A DNA stretch of 23,737 nucleotides from a virus (taxonomy: Duplodnaviria; Heunggongvirae; Uroviricota; Caudoviricetes): IMG/VR virus record IMGVR_UViG_2740892036_000009, positions 1 through 23,737 of that record; one strand, written 5' to 3'. Below are positions 3,347 to 23,737 of this stretch, in pieces; the first letter of the stretch is position 1, and each line of letters opens with the position of its first letter. The notes below the pieces were generated by a model, which saw nothing but the letters and a program-made list of their open reading frames with translations, was not told the origin of the DNA and made no database searches. The position numbers and the translations under genes are program-made.

Positions 3347-3618
3347 GTATTCGTATTGAAATTGGCGAACGTTATGTCGTTACCAGTGACAGCTTTCAGT
3401 TTATTCTCCACGAGAAAAAGAGAGCTGAAAGCGGTAAAAACGCCGGTCAGGAATGGCTGGCGGTGGTTGGTTATTACCCGAAATTAAGCCAGCTCGTTTC
3501 CGGCCTGATGCATCACGATATTCTGACCGGAAGCGCAAAGTCTTTTGCTGATTTAAACGCGCAGGTTGAGCAACTCAGCAGGCGTTGTTCAGAGGCTTTT
3601 GGCTCATATGGCCGTTAA
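3343..3618 (+). CDS. hypothetical early protein (91 aa), immediately upstream of A
   Basis: GGAGA SD, ATGA overlap with previous gene; conserved position before A. Confidence 0.45.
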   Translation: MSIRIEIGERYVVTSDSFQFILHEKKRAESGKNAGQEWLAVVGYYPKLSQLVSGLMHHDILTGSAKSFADLNAQVEQLSRRCSEAFGSYGR

Positions 3619-5884
3619 AGCCTCCGGGCGTTTTGTCCCTCCGTCAGCATTTGCCGCAGGCACCGGTAAGGCGTTTATCGGTGCTTATGCATGGAACGCG
3701 CCACGCGAGGCCGTCGGGCGCGAAAGACCCCTTACACGTGACGAGATGCGTCAGGTGCAAGGTGTTTTATCCACGATTAACCGCCTGCCTTACTTTTTGC
3801 GCTCGCTGTTTACTTCACGCTATGACTACATCCGGCGCAATAAAAGCCCGGTGCACGGGTTTTATTTCCTCACATCCACTTTTCAGCGTCGTTTATGGCC
3901 GCGCATTGAGCGTGTGAATCAGCGCCATGAAATGAACACCGACGCGTCGTTGCTGTTTATGGCAGAGCGCGACCAGTATGCGCGCCTGCCGGGGATGAAT
4001 GACAAGGAGCTGAAAAAGTTTGCTGCCCGTATCTCATCGCAGCTTTTCATGATGTATGAGGAACTCTGCGATGCCTGGGTTGATGCACATGGCGAAAAAG
4101 AATCGCTGTTTACGGATGAGGCGCAGGCTCACCTCTATGGTCATGTTGCTGGCGCTGCACGTGCTTTCAATATTTTCCCGCTTTACTGGAAAAAATACCG
4201 TAAAGGGCAGATGACCACGAGGCAGGCATATTCTGCCATTGCCCGCCTGTTTAACGATGAGTGGTGGACTCATCAGCTTAAAGGCCAGCGTATGCGCTGG
4301 CATGAGGCGTTACTGATTGCTGTCGGGGAGGTCAATAAAGACCGTTCTCCTTATGCCAGTAAACATGCCATTCGTGATGTGCGTGCGCGCCGCCAGGCAA
4401 ATCTGGAATTTCTTAAATCGTGTGACCTTGAAAACAAGGAAACCGGCGAGCGCATCGACCTTATCAGTAAGGTGATGGGCAGTATTTCTAATCCAGAAAT
4501 TCGCCGGATGGAGCTGATGAACACCATCGCCGGTATTGAGCGTTACGCCGCCGCAGAGGGTGATGTGGGGATGTTTATCACGCTGACCGCGCCGTCAAAG
4601 TATCACCCGACACGTCAGGTCAGAAAAGGCGAAAGTAAAACCGTCCAGCTAAATCACGGCTGGAACGATGAGGCATTTAATCCAAAGGATGCGCAGCGTT
4701 ATCTCTGCCATATCTGGAGCCTGATGCGCACGGCATTCAAGGATAATGATTTACAGGTCTACGGTTTGCGTGTCGTCGAGCCACACCACGACGGAACGCC
4801 GCACTGGCATATGATGCTTTTTTGTAATCCACGCCAGCGTAACCAGATTATTGAAATCATGCGTCGCTACGCGCTCAAAGAGGATGGAGACGAAAGAGGA
4901 GCCGCGCGAAACCGTTTTCAGGCAAAACATCTTAACCGGGGCGGTGCTGCGGGGTATATCGCGAAATACATCTCAAAAAACATCGATGGCTATGCACTGG
5001 ATGGTCAGCTCGATAACGATACCGGCAGGCCGCTGAAAGATACTGCTGCGGCTGTTACCGCATGGGCGTCAACGTGGCGCATTCCGCAATTTAAAACGGT
5101 TGGTCTGCCGACAATGGGGGCTTACCGTGAACTACGCAAATTGCCTCGCGGCGTCAGCATTGCTGATGAGTTTGACGAGCGCGTCGAGGCTGCACGCGCC
5201 GCTGCAGACAGTGGTGATTTTGCGTTGTATATCAGCGCGCAGGGCGGGGCAAATGTCCCGCGCGATTGTCAGACTGTCAGGGTCGCCCGTAGCCCGTCGG
5301 ATGACGTTAACGAGTACGAGGAAGAAGTCGAGAGAGTGGTCGGCATTTACGCGCCGCATCTCGGCGCGCGTCATATTCATATCACCAGAACGACGGACTG
5401 GCGCATTGTGCCGAAAGTTCCGGTCGTTGAGCCTTTGACTTTAAAAAGCGGCATCGCCGCGCCTCGGAGTCCTGTCAATAACTGTGGAAAGCTCACCGGT
5501 GGTGATACTTCGTTACCGGCTCCCACACCTTCTGAGCACGCCGCAGCAGTGCTTAATCTGGTTGATGACGGTATTATCGAATGGAATGAGCCGGAGGTCG
5601 TGAAGGCGCTCAGGGGCGCATTAAAACACGGGCTGAGAACGCCAAACCGTCAGCAAAGAAACGGAAGCACGTTAAAACCACATGAAATTGCACCATCGGC
5701 CAGACTGAGCCGGTCGGAACGATTGCAAATCACCCGTATCCGCGTTGACCTTGCTCAGAATGGAATCTTGCCCCAGCGATGGGAGCTTGAGGCGCTGGCG
5801 CGTGGGGCAACCGTAAATTATGACGGGAAACAATTCACGTATCTGGCTGCTGATGAGTGGCCGGGATTCTCAACAAACATATAA
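3608..5884 (+). CDS. A: replication initiation endonuclease A (rolling-circle nickase), 758 aa
   Basis: Protein from MAVKASGRFVPP... is near-identical to my recollection of P2 gpA, including the HxH-type motif region (PHWHMMLF) and active-site Tyr region (YIAKYISKNIDGY); ATG 3608 with GAGG upstream. Confidence 0.85.
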   Translation: MAVKASGRFVPPSAFAAGTGKAFIGAYAWNAPREAVGRERPLTRDEMRQVQGVLSTINRLPYFLRSLFTSRYDYIRRNKSPVHGFYFLTSTFQRRLWPRIERVNQRHEMNTDASLLFMAERDQYARLPGMNDKELKKFAARISSQLFMMYEELCDAWVDAHGEKESLFTDEAQAHLYGHVAGAARAFNIFPLYWKKYRKGQMTTRQAYSAIARLFNDEWWTHQLKGQRMRWHEALLIAVGEVNKDRSPYASKHAIRDVRARRQANLEFLKSCDLENKETGERIDLISKVMGSISNPEIRRMELMNTIAGIERYAAAEGDVGMFITLTAPSKYHPTRQVRKGESKTVQLNHGWNDEAFNPKDAQRYLCHIWSLMRTAFKDNDLQVYGLRVVEPHHDGTPHWHMMLFCNPRQRNQIIEIMRRYALKEDGDERGAARNRFQAKHLNRGGAAGYIAKYISKNIDGYALDGQLDNDTGRPLKDTAAAVTAWASTWRIPQFKTVGLPTMGAYRELRKLPRGVSIADEFDERVEAARAAADSGDFALYISAQGGANVPRDCQTVRVARSPSDDVNEYEEEVERVVGIYAPHLGARHIHITRTTDWRIVPKVPVVEPLTLKSGIAAPRSPVNNCGKLTGGDTSLPAPTPSEHAAAVLNLVDDGIIEWNEPEVVKALRGALKHGLRTPNRQQRNGSTLKPHEIAPSARLSRSERLQITRIRVDLAQNGILPQRWELEALARGATVNYDGKQFTYLAADEWPGFSTNI

Positions 5885-5987: not shown

Positions 5988-6206
5988 ATGACTAATGCAT
6001 ACATTACTAGCTATGCGTCCGGTTCCGCCATTGTACTCGTGCAAGAGTCTCCGGCTGATGGCTATTGTTTACAAATTATGGTCAAAGAGAATCTGACCCT
6101 CTACGAGTTGGTCGGAGGGACTGAGATCGTCAGTGATAACTGCAGCCGTATGGGAGAAATAAATAATCCCAACCGTCCATATTTCTACCTTCACGCGTGC
6201 CCATAA
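5988..6206 (+). CDS. possible small ORF (72 aa) downstream of A (orf91 position); weak call
   Basis: ATG 5988 with GGAAG ~10 nt upstream; no recognisable motif; may be non-coding. Confidence 0.25.
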   Translation: MTNAYITSYASGSAIVLVQESPADGYCLQIMVKENLTLYELVGGTEIVSDNCSRMGEINNPNRPYFYLHACP

Positions 6207-6223
6207 TCTGTCACCACGTTGAC

Positions 6224-6271
6224 CATAGAAAACCCCGCCGACGCTGAAACTCGCTTTCAGTGCTGGCGGGG
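6224..6271 (-). terminator. rho-independent terminator for the minus-strand RT gene (GC stem CCCCGCCG...GGCGGGG followed by TTTTCT on the minus strand)
   Basis: Hairpin 6233-6271 read from sequence; T-rich run lies 3' of the stem only on the minus strand, downstream of the RT stop. Confidence 0.5.
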
Positions 6272-6371
6272 TTGAACAACGAGCTTGCGAGGCGTTAGGG
6301 ATGTCGAAATTTCATATGACTGTTCGCTTTAATGCTTAACGAAGTCATGTTGAGTTAATAACATTGTTTCG

Positions 6372-7916
6372 TTAAGCGCTGTGTTCCTTGTCGAATAAGT
6401 TCACTTCTTCTGGTGTAATATCAGTATCCATTTCTTCGAATGCATCTAAATCCACAATTTTTGTTTTTTTCAAAATTGATAGTATTTTCTGTTTGTTTTT
6501 ATTTTTGGCTGAACCCGGAATCCACTCTACATCCCACAGGCCATCAATGGTAAATGTTTTTTTTCCCTTGAGTTCATCATTTATGCGTTGACATAGGGCT
6601 GTTTTGTAATCGCCTTCCCATTGTGTGTGTATCTTCCCTTGAACTCGTTGAAACCAAATATCTAACATTTCAGTATTTGGTTGTTTACCTAGTTTACAAT
6701 GAAGTTGTTGTAACTTGCCAAATTTGAGTTCATCGTCGTCATAAAGGAAGGTCAAGAGTTTTGCGAAAATAGCCATTCCCACTGGGTAGGTGGTTGGGTT
6801 TTTAGCCATGATGCTTGAAATAATTCCAAGCATTGCATCTAGTTGATGCCCACTATTTGTGATCTTTTTCTTCCTAAATAATTTCCGCAAGAAATCATTT
6901 AAATATCTGACTGTAATTTTGGAGTTTTGATGTTTTAAAGAAAATAAATATATTGCATACAACATTTTCTGTAGGGAGTTGAACGACCCTTCTATAATAT
7001 ATTCTTTTTTTGCTGATTTAAGGGAGTGAAGAATGATGTCGTCATGTAGTTCTGTTTTTCTTGAGTTTAAATCAAGCCCAAACTCACCTAAGACCTCAAC
7101 CAAACACTTTGAGATTTTGTCCAAATCATCTTTACTGCTTGAAAATATTCGATAATCATCTCTGTAGCGAACTACTTTGTAATCCGTTATTTTTTGCTCT
7201 TCGGTTTTTTTTCTTAGCTGTAAATCAATTTCGCCTAAAATTAATTCGGCAAATGTATCCATCAACGTACTACCCAATGGTATTCCGTTTGTCTGATTAC
7301 TCATCATCATCTGGATATGAGTGTCAATCAATCGTCCTGGGTTATTGTTATTTTCTTTCTTTTTGGCCTCTTCTTTTGAGATGAATACCCATTCAAAGCT
7401 ATGAGTGTAAATAGAAGGGTAGAAGTTTGAAATATCTGTGCTGAACATGAACTCATACTCAAGAGCCAATGAAAGACTTTTTTGTTCAAAATCTTCCCAC
7501 CAGTTTAAAACAGATGCAGCTACGTTTGAGGTGTTCTTTTTGCTCACTGGGGTACTTGAGCATAAAAAAAGATCATTAGACTCAAACTCTCTAAATTTAT
7601 TCCTTATAGCATTCCAGTTGGAAGAGGATGTAATAAGTTTACAAAAATACACGTAGTACAGAGGATTAATTAGTGTTATTCGTCGCCAGCTATATAAGCC
7701 ATCTTTGCTGACTAAAACCTCGTAATTTATATTCTTCCCCATCAATGACTTGGAGTCAGGTTGGAAGTTGATTTTACCTTCATCTATCGCGGAGTTGATT
7801 TCTTCAAGCAAGGAAGAAAAATCGACATAACTGGGTAGCTCCAGAGTAGTGTATGAATCATGCTGCAGAAAATACTTAAGCGCTCTACCAGTAGTTAATT
7901 CATAAATCTTTTTCAT
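6372..7916 (-). CDS. reverse transcriptase, Abi-type (Abi-P2/AbiK-like standalone RT), ~514 aa from ATG 7916
   Basis: RT motifs in order: FMFSTDISNFYPSI (motif A Asp), GIPLGSTLMDTFAELIL (motif B), VRYRDDYRIF (YxDD motif C), LDLNSRKTEL (motif D); ~200-aa C-terminal extension; very AT-rich; occupies the tin/old cargo position of P2. Confidence 0.7.
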   Translation of the reverse strand: MKKIYELTTGRALKYFLQHDSYTTLELPSYVDFSSLLEEINSAIDEGKINFQPDSKSLMGKNINYEVLVSKDGLYSWRRITLINPLYYVYFCKLITSSSNWNAIRNKFREFESNDLFLCSSTPVSKKNTSNVAASVLNWWEDFEQKSLSLALEYEFMFSTDISNFYPSIYTHSFEWVFISKEEAKKKENNNNPGRLIDTHIQMMMSNQTNGIPLGSTLMDTFAELILGEIDLQLRKKTEEQKITDYKVVRYRDDYRIFSSSKDDLDKISKCLVEVLGEFGLDLNSRKTELHDDIILHSLKSAKKEYIIEGSFNSLQKMLYAIYLFSLKHQNSKITVRYLNDFLRKLFRKKKITNSGHQLDAMLGIISSIMAKNPTTYPVGMAIFAKLLTFLYDDDELKFGKLQQLHCKLGKQPNTEMLDIWFQRVQGKIHTQWEGDYKTALCQRINDELKGKKTFTIDGLWDVEWIPGSAKNKNKQKILSILKKTKIVDLDAFEEMDTDITPEEVNLFDKEHSA

Positions 7917-8121
7917 AATTAGTGATTTCTTCTTAAGTTGCGCACAAATAACTACCTGTTTTCTATCATGATAACGATGCGAATGCGAGCAATTCAGGAA
8001 GTGCATTACTCTGCATCGAAGCGCACGCAAGTCAGAGAACAATAACTGCCTGGCGACATCAGGACTGGCGCGCTAGTTGAGTGGTCATGCAACTGCATTA
8101 AAACCGCCCCATGAAGCGGGC

Positions 8122-8140
8122 GGGCGAGGCGGGGAAAGCA
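8122..8140 (+). other. cos: cos site: 19-nt P2-type cohesive-end sequence GGCGAGGCGGGGAAAGCAC
   Basis: Exact 19-mer as I recall it for the P2 cohesive end, followed by CTGCGCGCT; located between A-side cargo and Q as expected for a P2 prophage; recalled from memory, not searched. Confidence 0.55.
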
Positions 8141-8365
8141 CTGCGCGCTCCATTAACGACCATTGCATAATACTATTAGCCTATGAATCGAGTCATGAGA
8201 TGTTATCTTTACGATTCAGGCGAGTGCTTTCGTTACGATGAGTTGGTTTAAGCACACTATCTGCACAAAAAATAATCTGTTGAAGCGATTCATCATTCCT
8301 AACGCTCTAGAGTCTTAAATAAAAATATGTAAAATGCGTAAAATTTTTTGAATTATGGATCAGCT

Positions 8366-9448
8366 ATGCTTGGAACTTCATCACAAAGAGCTATTTCAGT
8401 ACAACATGTTGATTTAAATGTAAAGTGTTGGGTCGTTAGACCTGGGATTAAGTATAGATATTTTGCAGACTTCCTTGAACGCAATATGGTTGCTACTGCT
8501 CACTTGGATAGGTTAAGTCCAGATCAAATTGACTTTAATGATGAAATTAACCATGAAAATATTAATCAAAAGGTTGATGGGTTAGATACTATTGGTTCAA
8601 GAAATATTCATACCCAAATTGAAAATTTCCTCATAGATATGCAGGTCGGTGATGTTGTTTTCACTTTGTCAGGTGATATGGTTGTTCCTGGAGTTATTGC
8701 ATCTTCCGCGTATTTTGAGCGTGAATGTTTAGGTAATAATGAAGGGTTTCATGTAAGACGTAGAGTCACATGGGGAGAGCCAGTTCGCAGACGAGAGATT
8801 CCATTAGCTCTTCAGAAATCGTTTACTGCATACCAGACCGTATTCTCTTTGGGCGGGAAGTCAGAAGAAGTACTGCATTGGTTAATGTCATTCTTTATAA
8901 CGGATAATATTTTCTGTACTAGCTTAAGAGTCGAGCAAGCAGAAGCCATTCGGCATCATACTCTTAAGCAGCTGGCTGAGCTGGTCGATAGAGTGCAGGT
9001 ACTTGCGCTATTAATTGGCGAAGAGTTTGATGGCGAGTATACAAACGAAGTTGTTCAGTTTGAGATGGAAAGACTTTCTAATAATGGAGAGTTATCCTTG
9101 ACTGCTCAACAAATGTTGATGTCTCCGGGGGATGTTTGGCTACAATTTAAAACAAATAATAGAAAGGCCGGAATTGCGTTTATGTTAATTATGGGGGCCA
9201 TTTTTAATCATGATGTAGCCTTCGCTTCAACGGTTGATAATCGTATAAGTGAGGAACTTCGATCTCATATTGAAGGGAAAAAAGAGGTTGCAATGGATGG
9301 ATTAAACTTTGATAGAGTTTCTCAAGTTCTAGAGTTGCGTTTAAAAAGACAAAATAGAGGCTTTGTTTCTGCTCGTCCAACGAACCGTGAGATCGGACAG
9401 GGGATCAATTTCCCTGAAGATGGTGATGCGAGGCATGCGAGTGACTAA
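8366..9448 (+). CDS. hypothetical protein, 360 aa from first in-frame ATG (track start 8348 is TTG); cargo gene 1 of a two-gene operon
   Basis: Long uninterrupted ORF in a low-GC island; no catalytic or nucleotide-binding motif recognisable by eye; stop is 2 nt before the next ATG. Confidence 0.55.
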   Translation: MLGTSSQRAISVQHVDLNVKCWVVRPGIKYRYFADFLERNMVATAHLDRLSPDQIDFNDEINHENINQKVDGLDTIGSRNIHTQIENFLIDMQVGDVVFTLSGDMVVPGVIASSAYFERECLGNNEGFHVRRRVTWGEPVRRREIPLALQKSFTAYQTVFSLGGKSEEVLHWLMSFFITDNIFCTSLRVEQAEAIRHHTLKQLAELVDRVQVLALLIGEEFDGEYTNEVVQFEMERLSNNGELSLTAQQMLMSPGDVWLQFKTNNRKAGIAFMLIMGAIFNHDVAFASTVDNRISEELRSHIEGKKEVAMDGLNFDRVSQVLELRLKRQNRGFVSARPTNREIGQGINFPEDGDARHASD

Positions 9449-9450
9449 CT

Positions 9451-10140
9451 ATGAACTTTGAATTTGTAAAAGAACACTGGCTGATAATAGGCATGCTATT
9501 CATAGCATGTCTATTATTAATTTTAAAATTCAAAGATATTTACAGAACACACGATCAGTTTAATAACGTCGTGATGTCATTGTGCGCTGTTTTGACACTT
9601 GTGTGGGGAGGATATACTTTTGATGTTTTGCACCAAAGGGATAAGGCAGAAGCTGATCTTATAGAGTTAAGAAATAGAATTAGAAATACAGAATCGACAT
9701 TTTTTAATGTTGACGTTAATGTTGTTAAAATCGATGATGTGTTTTATATAAAGCCTATTGTAACTATTAGGAATAACAGTAATGAGCGAATTTATGTGAA
9801 GCTTAATAACAAGTCCCTTGCTGTTAGTCGTGTTTTATCGGCCGGTGCAAAGCAAGTCGCTACGGAAGTTTTTTATCCAAATTATTATGAGGAGTTGGCT
9901 GTTCTTAATGAAGAAAGTAGCTCGCAAGGAAAAGCTAAAAATATACCTTTATATGATATATCCGTTCCTATCTCTGCCGAAAGACGCTTGAACTATCTTG
10001 TTTCGACAAAAGAAAAAGGAATGTATTATGTAACATTTAGTGCTGAGGCAATGAACGAAGATGGCTCGCCTGTTTCTAAATACATAAATGGGAAAAAATC
10101 TATATGGTTTTCTTCTTCATATATTGAAGTTAAAGATTGA
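9451..10140 (+). CDS. hypothetical membrane protein, 229 aa, two predicted N-terminal TM helices plus soluble C-terminal domain; cargo gene 2
   Basis: Hydrophobic stretches WLIIGMLFIACLLLIL and VVMSLCAVLTLVWGGYTF; tightly coupled to gene 1; low GC. Confidence 0.55.
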   Translation: MNFEFVKEHWLIIGMLFIACLLLILKFKDIYRTHDQFNNVVMSLCAVLTLVWGGYTFDVLHQRDKAEADLIELRNRIRNTESTFFNVDVNVVKIDDVFYIKPIVTIRNNSNERIYVKLNNKSLAVSRVLSAGAKQVATEVFYPNYYEELAVLNEESSSQGKAKNIPLYDISVPISAERRLNYLVSTKEKGMYYVTFSAEAMNEDGSPVSKYINGKKSIWFSSSYIEVKD

Positions 10141-10207
10141 ATTTCTATTAAACCATATAGTAATTGAAGGTGTTGGGGGTTAATCTTGCCTGGATTGCAT
10201 AGAATCA

Positions 10208-10235: not shown

Positions 10236-11264
10236 TTAATTAGATTCTAGACTGTAATCTTTAAAGCGGATGACCTCCTGACCGAGCCAGCCGTTTATCT
10301 CGCGGATCCTGTCCTGTAACGGGATAAGCTCATTGCGGACAAAGACCTTTGCCACTTTCTCAATATCACCCAGCGACCCGACGTTCTCCGGCTTGCCCCC
10401 CATCAACTGAAAGGGGATGCGGTGCGCGTCCAGCAGGTCAGCGGCGCTGGCTTTTTTGATATTAAAAAAATCGTCCTTCGTTGCCACTTCACTGAGCGGG
10501 ATAATTTTAATGCCGTCGGCTTTCCCCTGTGGGGCATAGAGAAACAGATTTTTAAAGTTATTGCGGCCTTTCGACTTAACCATGTTTTCGCGAAGCATTT
10601 CGATATCGTTGCGGTCCTGCACGGCATCGGTGACGTACATGATGTATCCGGCATGTGCGCCGTTTTCATAATACTTGCGGCGGAACAGCGTGGCCGACTC
10701 ATTCAGCCAGGCAGAGTTAAGGGCGCTGAGATATTCCGGCAGGCCGTACAGCTCCTGATTGATATCCGGCTCCAGCAGGTGAAATACGGAGCCGGGCGCG
10801 AAGGCTGTCGGTTCGTTGAAGGACGGCACCCACCAGTAAACATCCTCTTCCACCCCACGGCGGGTATATTTTGCCGGTGAGGTTTCCAGTCTGATGACCT
10901 TACCGGTGGTGCTGTAACGCTTTTCCAGAAACGCATTGCCGAACACCAGAAAATCCAGCACAAAGCGGCTGAAATCCTGCTGGGAAAGCCACGGGTGCGG
11001 AATAAACGTTGAAGCCAGAATATTACGTTTGACGTAAATCGGTGAGCTGTGATGTACGGCAGCACGCAGGCTTTTTGCCAGACCGGTAAAGCTGACCGGT
11101 GGCTCATACCATCTGCCGTTACTGATGCACTCGACGTAATCCAGAATGTCACGGCGGTCGAGTACCGGCACCGGTTCACCAAAGGTGAATGCCTCCATTT
11201 TCGGGGCGCTGGCGGTCATTTTTTTTGCCGCTGGTCGCGGTGTTTTCCCTTTTTTCTTGCTCAT
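10236..11264 (-). CDS. Q: portal protein Q, 342 aa
   Basis: Protein matches P2 gpQ-type portal in length and sequence as recalled; start ATG overlaps P stop (ATGA). Confidence 0.85.
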   Translation of the reverse strand: MSKKKGKTPRPAAKKMTASAPKMEAFTFGEPVPVLDRRDILDYVECISNGRWYEPPVSFTGLAKSLRAAVHHSSPIYVKRNILASTFIPHPWLSQQDFSRFVLDFLVFGNAFLEKRYSTTGKVIRLETSPAKYTRRGVEEDVYWWVPSFNEPTAFAPGSVFHLLEPDINQELYGLPEYLSALNSAWLNESATLFRRKYYENGAHAGYIMYVTDAVQDRNDIEMLRENMVKSKGRNNFKNLFLYAPQGKADGIKIIPLSEVATKDDFFNIKKASAADLLDAHRIPFQLMGGKPENVGSLGDIEKVAKVFVRNELIPLQDRIREINGWLGQEVIRFKDYSLESN

Positions 11265-18535: not shown

Positions 18536-18965
18536 TGCCGTCACGGTGCTGAAAACTAACCCCGAGATGCTGCGGATATTCGTGGATAACGGGAGTATTG
18601 CCTCCACACTGGCGGCGTCGCTGTCATTCGAAAAGCGTTACACGCTCAATGTGATTGTGACCGACTTTACCGGTGATTTTGACCTGCTCATCGTGCCGGT
18701 GCTGGCGTGGCTGCGGGAAAATCAGCCCGACATCATGACCACCGACGAAGGCCAGAAAAAGGGCTTCACATTTTATGCAGACATCAACAATGACAGCAGC
18801 TTTGATATCAGCATCAGCCTGATGCTGACCGAGCGCACGCTGGTCAGTGAGGTTGACGGTGCGCTGCATGTGAAGAATATCCCGGAACCTCCGCCGCCGG
18901 AGCCGGTCACCCGCCCGGTGGAGCTTTATATCAATGGCGAACTGGTGAGCAAGTGGGATGAATGA
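18498..18965 (+). CDS. R: tail completion protein R, 155 aa
   Basis: P2 gpR-like by position and sequence as recalled. Confidence 0.8.
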   Translation: MLKPDSLRRALTDAVTVLKTNPEMLRIFVDNGSIASTLAASLSFEKRYTLNVIVTDFTGDFDLLIVPVLAWLRENQPDIMTTDEGQKKGFTFYADINNDSSFDISISLMLTERTLVSEVDGALHVKNIPEPPPPEPVTRPVELYINGELVSKWDE

Positions 18966-19416
18966 GTTTAAGCGTTTTGAAGACCGGATGACCGGACTGA
19001 TTGAGTCGCTGTCACCGTCAGGGCGTCGGCGACTGGCGGTAGATATTGCGAAGAAACTGCGCCAGCGCCAGCAGCAGCGAATTAAATTACAAAAAGGCCC
19101 AGATGGTACGCCGTATGTACCGAGAAAAAACCAGCCAGTGCGAAATAAGAAAGGCCGGATAAAGCGGGAAATGTTTGTGAAATTACGCACTAACCGGTTT
19201 ATGAAAGCAACAGGTAGCGAGAGTGCGGCGGTGGTGGAGTTTGCCAGCGGAGTGCAACGAATTGCGCGAGTACATCAATTAGGGCTTAAGGATAAGCCGG
19301 GGCGTAATAGTGCTGTGGTGGAATATCCTGTTCGTGAGTTATTTGGTTTTGACAAGGAATCTATACAATTGATAGAAAGGGAGTTATTAGTGATTCTATC
19401 GAAAGATGTTATATGA
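18958..19416 (+). CDS. S: tail completion protein S, 152 aa; 3' ~100 nt are AT-rich and look replaced
   Basis: P2 gpS-like N-terminal 115 aa; ATG overlaps R stop; C-terminal codons share the low GC of the downstream cargo. Confidence 0.75.
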   Translation: MNEFKRFEDRMTGLIESLSPSGRRRLAVDIAKKLRQRQQQRIKLQKGPDGTPYVPRKNQPVRNKKGRIKREMFVKLRTNRFMKATGSESAAVVEFASGVQRIARVHQLGLKDKPGRNSAVVEYPVRELFGFDKESIQLIERELLVILSKDVI

Positions 19417-20168
19417 GACGGGTGTTTATGGATGAAAAGTTTTCTATTTTGAGAAAAAGAGTAAAGCACTCTCAAAAGAAAGTTATGGATTGTATTATTG
19501 TTGACCATAATGCTGATATATGTGTGTTATGCGGGAGTTCTGACGATATTACTCGTGAGCACATTATTCCTCAGTGGGCCTTTGAGTCAAATACTGAAAA
19601 ATCTTTAATTAATAAAAAGAATAATCAGTCAACTCATTACATTAAAGCCACTGTACCAGCATGCAGAGTGTGCAATTCTGATTTGCTGGGAGTGTTTGAG
19701 TATAACCTGAAGAAATTTCTTACGGAAAAGAGGGGAGAGGAGTTAACAGATTATGAGTATGATTGCATCATATGGTGGTTGCAATACATGGGTTTTAAGT
19801 TGCAATTAATGGATTTGCGGAACCGCTTTCTCAGGTATAAAGGTGGTGATTATATCCCGTTCCTTGCAAACTTTCCGGTTGCAATGTTTTGGGGGAATGT
19901 CGATACGACGCCGGGGGATGTCTTCAGGATTATACGAAAATCGCGACGCAATCTGATGTCGAAATGGAAGGATAAAAAACATAATTCTTTGATGGTTTTT
20001 GAAACATCAAACAAGAGTTTTCATTTCTTTCATAAGGTTGATGAATTTATTTTTATTGAAATGCCTCAGGTTAAGAAGGCGTTTTTCTTCTTTTTTAATA
20101 AAGAATTTGACAGCCATGATTTAGCTCATGAGGAGTGTATGAAGATTATAGAGAAGTGCTACAACTAA
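19413..20168 (+). CDS. HNH-nuclease-motif protein, 251 aa, AT-rich cargo between S and V (alternative start ATG 19428)
   Basis: CVLCG-x7-EHIIPQ ... CRVCNSDL = CxxC ... H ... CxxC(N) HNH-type signature in the N-terminal third; low GC; sits at the variable S-V junction (orf30 position in P2). Confidence 0.55.
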   Translation: MRRVFMDEKFSILRKRVKHSQKKVMDCIIVDHNADICVLCGSSDDITREHIIPQWAFESNTEKSLINKKNNQSTHYIKATVPACRVCNSDLLGVFEYNLKKFLTEKRGEELTDYEYDCIIWWLQYMGFKLQLMDLRNRFLRYKGGDYIPFLANFPVAMFWGNVDTTPGDVFRIIRKSRRNLMSKWKDKKHNSLMVFETSNKSFHFFHKVDEFIFIEMPQVKKAFFFFFNKEFDSHDLAHEECMKIIEKCYN

Positions 20169-20245
20169 TATTTATTATGTTGTGTCACAGCTGACAGAAT
20201 CCTCCATGATTGCTGCTGGTATCGTCCAGCGGCATCCTTCCCGTT
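20169..20245 (+). promoter_or_regulatory. candidate late promoter PV region with decamer TGTTGTGTCA (20178-20187) and CAGCTG-centred partial dyad
   Basis: Same decamer as in the P/O intergenic region; P2 has an Ogr-activated late promoter upstream of V; exact TGT-N12-ACA spacing not found. Confidence 0.3.
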
Positions 20246-20881
20246 ATGAACACTCTCGCAAATATTCAGGAACTCGCGCGCGCACTGCGCAACATGATTC
20301 GTACCGGCCTTGTCGTCGAAACCAACCTTAAAGCCGGTCGCTGCCGTGTGCAGACCGGCGGCATGTGCACCGACTGGCTTCAGTGGCTGACCCATCGCGC
20401 CGGACGTTCGTGCACATGGTGGGCACCTTCCGTGGGGGAGCAGGTGCTGATTCTGGCCGTGGGCGGTGAACTTGACACGGCGTTTGTTCTGCCGGGGATT
20501 TATTCCGGCGATAACCCTCCGCCGTCTGCGTCGGCGGATGCCCTGCATATCCGTTTCCCTGACGGGGCGGTGATTGAGTATGAACCCGAAACCAGTGCAC
20601 TTACGGTAAGCGGAATTAAAACGGCCAGCGTGACGGCTTCTGATTCTGTTACCGCCACGGTGCCGGTGGTCATGGTGAAAGCATCAACCCGCGTCACCCT
20701 GGACACACCGGAGGTGGTCTGCACCAACAGGCTGATTACCGGCACGCTGGAAGTGCAGAAGGGCGGGACGATGCGCGGCAACATTGAACACACCGGCGGT
20801 GAACTCTCATCAAACGGTAAGGTACTTCATACCCATAAACACCCCGGCGACAGCGGCGGCACAACCGGGAGTCCTTTATGA
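20246..20881 (+). CDS. V: baseplate spike/assembly protein V, 211 aa
   Basis: MNTLANIQELARALRNMIRTGLVVE... matches P2 gpV as recalled (track start 20210 is upstream non-ATG). Confidence 0.85.
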   Translation: MNTLANIQELARALRNMIRTGLVVETNLKAGRCRVQTGGMCTDWLQWLTHRAGRSCTWWAPSVGEQVLILAVGGELDTAFVLPGIYSGDNPPPSASADALHIRFPDGAVIEYEPETSALTVSGIKTASVTASDSVTATVPVVMVKASTRVTLDTPEVVCTNRLITGTLEVQKGGTMRGNIEHTGGELSSNGKVLHTHKHPGDSGGTTGSPL

Positions 20882-22742: not shown

Positions 22743-23737
22743 CAGTGAAATACTACGCCATTCTGACTAATCAGGGCGCAGCACGACTGGCTAACGCGAC
22801 GATGCTCGGCAGTAAGCTGAATCTGACGCAAATGGCCGTTGGTGATGCGAATGGTGTATTACCGACACCAGACCCGGCACAGACAAAACTGATTAACCAG
22901 AAACGCATTGCACCGCTGAATCTTCTGAGTGTTGACCCTAACAATCAGAGCCAGATTATTGCGGAGCAAATTATCCCTGAAAACGAGGGAGGATTCTGGA
23001 TCCGTGAGATTGGGCTTTATGATGATGAAGGCGTACTCATTGCGGTGGCGAACTGCCCGGAAACGTACAAACCGCAGTTGCAGGAAGGCAGTGGTCGTAC
23101 CCAGACTATCCGCATGATTCTGGTTGTCTCGAATACCGAAGCCATCACGCTGAAAATCGATCCGTCGGTGGTACTGGCGACCCGTAAATATGTGGATGAC
23201 AAAATCTCAGAACACGAACAGTCACGACGACACCCGGATGCATCGCTGACCGCAAAAGGTTTTACTCAGTTAAGCAGCGCAACCAACAGCACGTCTGAAA
23301 CACTGGCCGCAACGCCGAGAGCGGTAAAGATCGCGTATGACCTTGCTAACGGGAAATATACTGCACAGGACGCGACCACAGCGCGAAAAGGTCTTGTCCA
23401 GCTCAGTAGCGCCACCAACAGCGATTCTGAAACGCTTGCGGCAACGCCAAAGGCGGTAAAGACAGCATATGACCTTGCTAACGGGAAATATACCGCACAG
23501 GACGCGACCACAGCGCGAAAAGGTCTTGTCCAGCTCAGTAGCGCCACCAACAGCGATTCTGAAACGCTTGCGGCAACGCCAAAGGCGGTAAAGACAGCAT
23601 ATGACCTTGCTAACGGGAAATATACCGCACAGGACGCGACCACAGCGCGAAAAGGCCTTGTCCAGCTCAGCAGCGCCACTAACAGCACGTCAGAAACGCA
23701 GGCTGCCACACCAAAAGCCGTGAAGGCTGTATATGAC
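22739..23737 (+). CDS. H: tail fibre protein H, N-terminal 333 codons (runs off the 3' end of the window)
   Basis: MTVKYYAILTNQGAARLANATMLGSKLNLTQMAVGDANG... P2 gpH-like N-terminus; ATG overlaps I stop (ATGA); open to window end; not in the ORF track because no stop is reached. Confidence 0.8.
   Translation, partial: MTVKYYAILTNQGAARLANATMLGSKLNLTQMAVGDANGVLPTPDPAQTKLINQKRIAPLNLLSVDPNNQSQIIAEQIIPENEGGFWIREIGLYDDEGVLIAVANCPETYKPQLQEGSGRTQTIRMILVVSNTEAITLKIDPSVVLATRKYVDDKISEHEQSRRHPDASLTAKGFTQLSSATNSTSETLAATPRAVKIAYDLANGKYTAQDATTARKGLVQLSSATNSDSETLAATPKAVKTAYDLANGKYTAQDATTARKGLVQLSSATNSDSETLAATPKAVKTAYDLANGKYTAQDATTARKGLVQLSSATNSTSETQAATPKAVKAVYD
23267..23737 (+). repeat. in-frame 132-bp (44-aa) tandem repeats within H (unit ~LSSATNSDSETLAATPKAVKTAYDLANGKYTAQDATTARKGLVQ), at least 3.5 copies, copies 2 and 3 identical
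   Basis: Identical 132-bp units at 23399-23530 and 23531-23662, diverged flanking copies at 23267 and 23663; resembles the phage tail-fibre repeat family. Confidence 0.75.

Follow-up and report, generated by a model that had tools for sequence, protein, structure and literature searches.

A putative HNH-type nuclease gene in the polymorphic slot between tail genes S and V of a P2-like prophage

The DNA analysed here, referred to as the window, is a stretch of 23,737 nucleotides (nt) from a virus of the Caudoviricetes (positions 1 to 23,737 of IMG/VR record IMGVR_UViG_2740892036_000009) and is part of a P2-like prophage. Between gene S (18958-19416) and gene V (20246-20881) of this prophage lies an additional open reading frame (ORF), here called the cargo gene. 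A sequence-only reading of the window had described it as an insertion of very low G+C content (GC) at the variable S-V position, with a CxxC...EHIIP...CxxCN signature. The gene can be read from either of two starts.

19428-20168, + strand: cargo ORF, 246 amino acids (aa), with the start given by PGAP and RefSeq
19413-20168, + strand: cargo ORF from an alternative upstream ATG, 251 aa, with an ATGA overlap with the S stop codon

The start at position 19428 is shared by all homologues of the cargo in other genera, and the commonest Escherichia coli allele has GTG rather than ATG at the equivalent start. The coordinates and description from the sequence-only reading proved correct, and the translation contains CVLCG...TREHIIPQW...PACRVCN. 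The composition was also as described: the GC of the cargo ORF is 0.36, and that of the final 120 nt of S is 0.38, compared with 0.56 upstream and 0.59 in V. The only other block of equally low GC in the window is the old/tin hotspot (6000-10200).

The encoded protein matches phrog_10503, a family of unknown function, from end to end (3.5e-179). It is also 98.8% identical to ORF16 of phage R18C (YP_009883387), with 99.3% nucleotide identity across the region from S to V. The R18C paper lists this gene as a moron of 741 bp and unknown function, present in place of P2 ORF30, and reports that PSI-BLAST of ORF16 gave no motif or clue (Arch Virol 2019, PMC6823313). Judged by this identity, the cargo gene is the already-recorded ORF16 moron in the same slot. 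Gene and position were thus known before, and the present analysis adds a domain assignment, the anatomy of the cassette with its linkage to the S tail, and the content of the hotspot. Identification as a homologue of P2 orf30 with normal GC was ruled out, as orf30 lies on the opposite strand and BLASTP gave E=0.47, and the GC of the cargo is low. The length of P2 ORF30 itself is given as '261-bp-long' in PMC6823313, while the P2 record has a 786-bp gene of 261 aa.

The elements of the cargo protein, which fall into an N-terminal motif-bearing half and a C-terminal domain, are as follows.

19509-19727, + strand: HNH / His-Me finger core, residues ~28-100
19521-19532, + strand: C32xxC35, invariant columns
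19557-19562, + strand: E44-H45, with E44 invariant and H45 at least 90% conserved
19620-19622, + strand: N65, at least 90% conserved
19662-19676, + strand: C79xxC82-N83, invariant columns
19728-20165, + strand: family-specific C-terminal domain, residues 101-246, ~145 residues

Conservation was assessed over 75 aligned relatives, each 14-40% identical to the window protein. Residues C32, C35, E44, P48, W50, C79, C82, N83 and W117 are invariant in this set, and H45, N65, P77 and E91 are conserved in at least 90% of it. The four invariant cysteines form two CxxC pairs, the arrangement of a Cys4 structural zinc site. When searched against Pfam, the window protein matched HNH_5 (PF14279) with 16.0 bits (E=0.012; residues 37-55 on profile positions 1-22), below the gathering score of 27.5 bits. 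A second sub-threshold match was to Endonuclease_1, like HNH_5 a His-Me finger family, and an NCBIfam search of the window protein gave no match. The low HNH_5 score is explained by a ~30-residue insertion, located in the beta-hairpin between the two HNH halves.

The relatives provide the link to a known nuclease family. HNH_5 is matched at E<0.01 by 50 of the 75 (best 2.8e-7), and nine of ten tested relatives of 300-620 aa match the same first 21-23 profile positions. A profile built from 22 close homologues and searched against 1.84 billion representatives returned 35 clusters of full-length relatives at E<1e-30, together with several hundred proteins sharing residues ~25-135, most of which are 300-360 aa long. 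It is over these residues that the HNH_5-matching relatives connect to the window family, at E values of 1e-8 to 1e-11. In the PDB, the family profile matched a single sequence, that of the HNH endonuclease 4h9d, weakly (E=1.8) but with both halves colinear. An AlphaFold2 model (overall pLDDT 71.6, pTM 0.74) has a beta-beta-alpha topology, with strand 41-45 ending at E44-H45, strand 75-79, and helix 80-100 bearing N83. The model also has an extra N-terminal helix, and hairpin 55-72 is modelled at low confidence. The HNH signature proposed from the sequence is therefore upheld at the level of the family, via profiles of the relatives, but the window protein itself remains sub-threshold. Based on these comparisons, the N-terminal domain is assigned as a Cys4-zinc-stabilised beta-beta-alpha-metal, HNH_5-like His-Me finger, and is a putative nuclease.

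The C-terminal domain consists of two long helices, a Lys/Arg-rich helix, a four-stranded sheet and a terminal helix, in that order. The Lys/Arg-rich helix carries the conserved residues R170, R173, R174, K179, K181 and K184, and a conserved FHFFHK motif is located on a strand of the sheet. The sequence-only reading had recognised no motif in this part of the protein. Indeed, no relative of known function or structure was found in Pfam, in PDB sequence and profile searches or in fold searches, and Pfam detected no NUMOD, IENR1, helix-turn-helix (HTH) or AP2-type DNA-binding module in the window protein.

Upstream of the cargo, gene S was divided into parts on the basis of a sliding-identity table and blastn breakpoints.

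18958-19416, + strand: gene S, tail completion / virion morphogenesis protein, 152 aa (PF05069, 1.8e-28)
18958 to ~19030 (codons 1 to ~25), + strand: S part 1, 96-98% identical to Wphi/P2 and common to all E. coli P2-like phages
~19031 to ~19280, + strand: S part 2, 'allele B', 96-100% shared with prophages of other cargos
~19285-19416, + strand: S part 3, cargo-specific low-GC tail of ~44 codons, from sliding identity

Divergence from the S of P2 and Wphi starts at ~codon 25, and the identity of allele B to either is only 44-73%. Among the cassettes compared, cargo-specific S sequence begins at ~19245-19285 and runs to the stop codon. Comparison of S C-termini across P2-like phages confirmed that the tails are cargo-specific. 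In other genera, the S tails of P2-like prophages with an HNH cargo (IQLIE[KR]ELL) are similar to the HNH-linked tail here (...ESIQLIERELLVILSKDVI), which is unlike those of Wphi/P2, of a cassette carrying a Pycsar pair or of a cassette carrying an ATPase. Of the E. coli genomes, 79 have the complete S 3' allele and 77 have the cargo. In terms of composition, the final 120 nt of S have a GC of 0.31-0.42 in all eight tail-replacing cassettes examined, and of 0.48-0.51 in Wphi, P2 and three prophages with a minus-strand cargo behind an intact P2-type S. By these comparisons S is a three-part mosaic whose 3' end travels with the cargo. That the end of S had been swapped in with the cargo was already suggested from the GC drop; sliding identity and GC both support the linkage, but the tail measures ~44 rather than ~35 codons and is nested within a longer divergent S allele that starts at ~codon 25, a refinement of the original claim. 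As the tail is also replaced in the case of two unrelated cargos (Pycsar and the ATPase), the replacement is a property of the hotspot and not of the HNH gene.

The right side of the cassette is considerably simpler.

20169-20245, + strand: S-V intergenic remnant with the V-operon promoter region, conserved in alignments
20179-20197, + strand: GTTGTGTCACAGCTGACAG element, at the position of the activator binding site annotated in the P2 record
20212-20233, + strand: hairpin GCTGCTGG-6-CCAGCGGC, between the activator-site-like element and the V start
20246-20881, + strand: gene V, baseplate spike (PF04717 and PF18715), outside the cassette

The right edge lies between 20168 and ~20209. The cassette ends 10 nt short of the GTTGTG...ACA element, which together with the hairpin upstream of V is conserved at every locus compared. 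Similarity to Wphi by blastn restarts at 20209, and V matches the Wphi gene at 96% identity already from codon 1. Neither target-site duplications nor flanking junction repeats were found at the cassette. The pairing of the hairpin is kept through different stem sequences, with GCCGCCGG/CCGGCGGC in Wphi and likewise at other loci. It may mark where the O operon ends or belong to the V promoter.

The same slot holds other genes in other prophages. Directly after S, on the + strand, an allele-B sibling prophage carries a Pycsar pair of effector and cyclase (PycTM 8.5e-29, PycC 1.5e-128), and in the same slot of an allele-B sibling prophage there is an ATPase of 414 aa that matches the PADLOC candidate PDC-S59 (2.8e-31). 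In another E. coli prophage the slot contains a protein annotated as GTP pyrophosphokinase, with a match to PDC-S33 (1.1e-16). Further occupants, again in E. coli P2-like prophages, are a 346-aa hypothetical protein and two small hypotheticals.

L015 2896-4798; L016 2969-4213; L067 2062-3141; L068; L069: S-V slots with other cargos, all in E. coli P2-like prophages

We surveyed the slot in a spread set of 51 full-coverage loci from E. coli P2-like prophages and found at least seven size classes: 28 loci were empty, 14 had an insert of P2-orf30 size, three carried the HNH cargo and the remaining six were of four other sizes, among them the protein annotated as GTP pyrophosphokinase and some unannotated genes. 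The description of S-V as a variable position is thus borne out by the other cargos in sibling prophages, and defence genes or candidates recur there, in the form of the Pycsar pair and the matches to PDC-S59 and PDC-S33. As judged from this gene content, S-V is a polymorphic slot that in other prophages holds bona fide defence systems. We found no paper surveying the S-V slot as a defence hotspot; the study of P2-like hotspots that was consulted covers the old/tin locus and not S-V (Rousset et al. 2022, PMC9122126).

The old/tin locus of the window prophage is also occupied.

6000-10200: old/tin low-GC cargo block, GC 0.34-0.43, between replication gene A (3566-5884) and Q (10236-11264)
6372-8042, - strand: AbiP2 reverse transcriptase (PADLOC 1.8e-159)
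8348-9448, + strand: ORF with a weak PDC-S02 match (2.5e-12)
9451-10140, + strand: ORF with no match

At the right end of the window, a tandem repeat (23276-23686, + strand; period 132 nt, 3.1 copies, 93% matches) lies in frame in the tail-fibre region.

To place the cargo gene in a population context, we compared its distribution with that of the backbone. Of 5426 complete E. coli genomes, 1581 (~29%) contain a P2-like V and 77 contain the cargo, always on the chromosome and adjoining S. The cargo is therefore carried by ~4-5% of E. coli P2-like prophages, with ~95% lacking it. A tblastn search of 50,697 phage records identified one phage only, R18C (under two accessions), and no plasmid carries the gene. 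Between E. coli alleles of the cargo dN/dS is 0.18, a value based on only 6 synonymous and 5 non-synonymous changes.

Beyond E. coli, intact homologues with 55-74% identity are found at the identical site in P2-like prophages of Klebsiella, Enterobacter, Yersinia, Kluyvera and others. Each is encoded in the direction of S, starting 0-15 nt after it and ending ~75 nt before V. The divergence of the cargo between genera (55-70% aa identity) parallels that of S, V and J (63-82%). This suggests that the cargo has long resided in one lineage of P2-like phages. In Klebsiella P2-like prophages, an extra gene of 216 aa follows the HNH homologue (L004 5926-6576, - strand); it has no PADLOC match and no counterpart at the E. 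coli, Enterobacter and Yersinia loci. Records titled Sporobacter termitidis metagenome-assembled genome and Chryseobacterium sp. 18061 (L019 and L020) contain an enterobacterial-type P2-like R-S-HNH-V-W-J block with 63-82% aa identity to the window proteins, which looks like contamination or mis-binning rather than true hosts.

Other relatives lie outside phages. A homologue with 62% identity is located in an integrative and conjugative element (ICE) of Erwinia (L008 5001-5744), outside any phage, preceded by TraU and TraG_N and followed by a 112-aa gene, an integrase and a KAP NTPase. Relatives at 36-42% identity come from Vibrio, Photobacterium, Shewanella, Halomonas, Bacteroidota and other hosts, and none lies in a P2 context. 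Around these relatives, otherwise ordinary genes are interspersed with four integrases, two Mrr nucleases and isolated PADLOC hits. A comparison of the surroundings of 24 distant relatives yielded no conserved partner.

We favour, at a probability of about 0.5, the reading that the cargo gene encodes a prophage-borne anti-phage nuclease acting in superinfection exclusion or abortive infection. The gene is the payload of a low-GC S-V cassette that brings its own last ~44 codons of S and stops just short of the V promoter. In this reading the C-terminal domain would select or sense the substrate, and the HNH site would cut the nucleic acid of a competing phage or, upon a trigger, that of the host. 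Support comes from the company that the gene keeps, namely Pycsar and the PADLOC candidates in the slot and AbiP2 in the old/tin hotspot of the same prophage. The stand-alone nature of the distant relatives, which are chromosomal or ICE genes, the sporadic presence of the cargo (77 genomes, against 1581 with V), and selection, seen in a dN/dS of 0.18 and in the intact ORFs of other genera, are also in agreement with defence.

Several observations weigh against it. The protein matches no validated defence family: PADLOC v2 gives PDC-M01B only, at E=0.028, and for a few relatives the PDC-M01B hits are weak too (best ~1e-5). The window protein falls short of the HNH_5 threshold (16 vs 27.5 bits), and fold searches returned no HNH structure. 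The lytic phage R18C keeps the gene intact, and expression during the phage's own growth is thus tolerated. The neighbourhood evidence for the relatives at 36-42% identity is anecdotal, with no tested enrichment. Promoter scans identified no consensus sigma-70 promoter upstream of the cargo, here or in Yersinia, and the position alone would imply late expression from the O operon only, and not in the lysogen. A literature search found no functional study of the gene, of phrog_10503, of PF14279 or of P2-like HNH defence.

In the case of expression, there is no terminator between S and the co-oriented cargo directly after it. Combined with the lack of a consensus promoter, this means that the cargo is at least transcribed late with the O operon. 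A further signal may be contained within S itself.

19354-19392 (codons 133-145), + strand: stretch of conserved synonymous sites in S, from third-position identity

Third-position identity across six genera reaches 0.77 in this stretch. The rest of S gives values of 0.26-0.58, and the cargo averages 0.43 (sd 0.09, max 0.68). The sequence CTATACA[A/G]TTG[A/G]T.GAA is invariant at six loci from different genera, and a -10-like TACAAT is located at 19364-19369, inside the conserved stretch. No conserved RNA structure or Rfam family was found in the S tail. Promoter scans of the Klebsiella and Pycsar S tails yielded one consensus hit each, at chance frequency (the Pycsar site scoring 10/12). The conserved stretch is a candidate internal promoter for the cargo, with CTATACAATTG as a possible element.

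A bolder version of the defence reading can be put forward only tentatively. The cargo gene may found an unrecognised single-gene HNH immune family, with the cassette replacing the C-terminus of the essential S and hiding its own signal there. S-V might then represent a third defence hotspot of P2-like phages, unsurveyed so far, whose cassettes are exchanged by recombination in S.

The position of the cargo could also be that of a late accessory nuclease serving the lytic cycle of the phage itself. Produced from the O operon alongside the tail proteins, it would then break down or nick the DNA of the host or of a competitor, or aid DNA processing, instead of protecting the lysogen. The gene lies on the same strand as S and 0-15 nt after it in every P2-like locus examined, without a terminator in between or a consensus promoter upstream, and the ATGA overlap with the S stop in the E. 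coli alleles allows for translational coupling. The lytic phage R18C has an intact copy, and a divergence parallel to that of S, V and J is what a long-resident phage gene would show. However, the gene is dispensable, given that ~95% of E. coli P2-like prophages lack it and that more than half of the spread sample is empty, and relatives occur outside phages, in an ICE and in chromosomes. The Pycsar pair follows S in the same orientation and with the same spacing, so placement is no argument against defence. The cargo is also far from the terminase genes, and P2 packaging is not known to require an HNH protein. We consider a role confined to the lytic cycle the main alternative to defence, though an unlikely one.

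A free-standing HNH gene between conserved phage genes is also reminiscent of homing endonucleases. Such an enzyme would cleave S-V junctions that lack the cargo in related P2-like phages infecting the same cell, and its gene would be acquired there through repair, with the S 3' end being a co-conversion tract or a cleavage-resistant allele. This would account for the presence/absence polymorphism among near-identical backbones and for the flanking S sequence that co-varies with the gene. However, the S tail is also replaced with Pycsar and with the ATPase, so a homing enzyme is not required, and there is almost no co-conversion on the right flank, where V is 96% Wphi-like from its start, nor are there junction repeats. 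The protein has none of the NUMOD, IENR1, HTH or AP2-type modules by Pfam, and its relatives occur singly, in chromosomes or an ICE, among unrelated neighbours. Its distribution also argues against mobility of this kind: it is present in one phage among 50,697 records, in no plasmid, and in only ~4-5% of E. coli P2-like prophages despite frequent polylysogeny. The evidence leans towards defence, and homing appears improbable. Least probable of all is a protein without a role in phage-phage conflict, either a catalytically inert zinc finger or regulator or a toxin maintained by addiction. In its favour are the below-threshold HNH_5 match and the uninformative fold searches. Against it, conservation is not limited to the cysteines: the residues expected to act in catalysis and metal binding (E44, H45, N65 and N83) are likewise invariant or conserved in at least 90% of relatives of 14-40% identity, and there is no conserved adjacent antitoxin-like partner.

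Should the cargo gene prove protective, it would add a compact single-gene nuclease family (246 aa) to phage-borne immunity, with a sensor or specificity domain that resembles nothing solved, and the S-V slot of P2-like prophages would be a place to mine for new systems. Should it have no measurable effect, it would be one more moron of unknown function. In addition, the structure of the cassette shows that S, although essential, tolerates complete replacement of its last ~44 codons, which is relevant to phage engineering.

A comparison with known systems places the cargo gene as follows. The PADLOC candidate PDC-M01B shows weak N-terminal similarity to the window protein, far below family level, and PDC-M01 is a two-gene candidate whereas the window gene has no conserved partner. 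Homing endonucleases such as the T4 Mob proteins and I-HmuI are likewise sporadic HNH genes between conserved phage genes; the window protein differs in having no recognised DNA-binding module, in being nearly absent from phages and in having relatives in non-phage contexts. With HNH_5, which the His-Me finger classification of Jablonska et al. (2017, PMC5714182) assigns to groups 1 and 8, and with 4h9d it shares the pattern CxxCG...T.(E/D)H..P ... PaCxxCN and the Cys4 zinc site flanking the core, and it is set apart by the ~30-residue insert, the extra N-terminal helix and the ~145-residue C-terminal domain. P2 Orf30 (NP_046770) is the classical occupant of the S-V slot and is likewise of low GC (0.34) and non-essential, but is a protein of 261 aa encoded on the opposite strand, after an intact S of P2 type and past the O-operon terminator. 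The anti-phage cargos of P2-like hotspots, such as Old, Tin and Fun/Z and the old/tin systems of Rousset et al. 2022, share with the cargo gene a low GC, a non-essential nature, high polymorphism and a fixed backbone position; the locus of that survey is old/tin, whereas the present gene lies at S-V and its defence role is putative. The closest counterpart is R18C ORF16, which is the same gene in the same slot.

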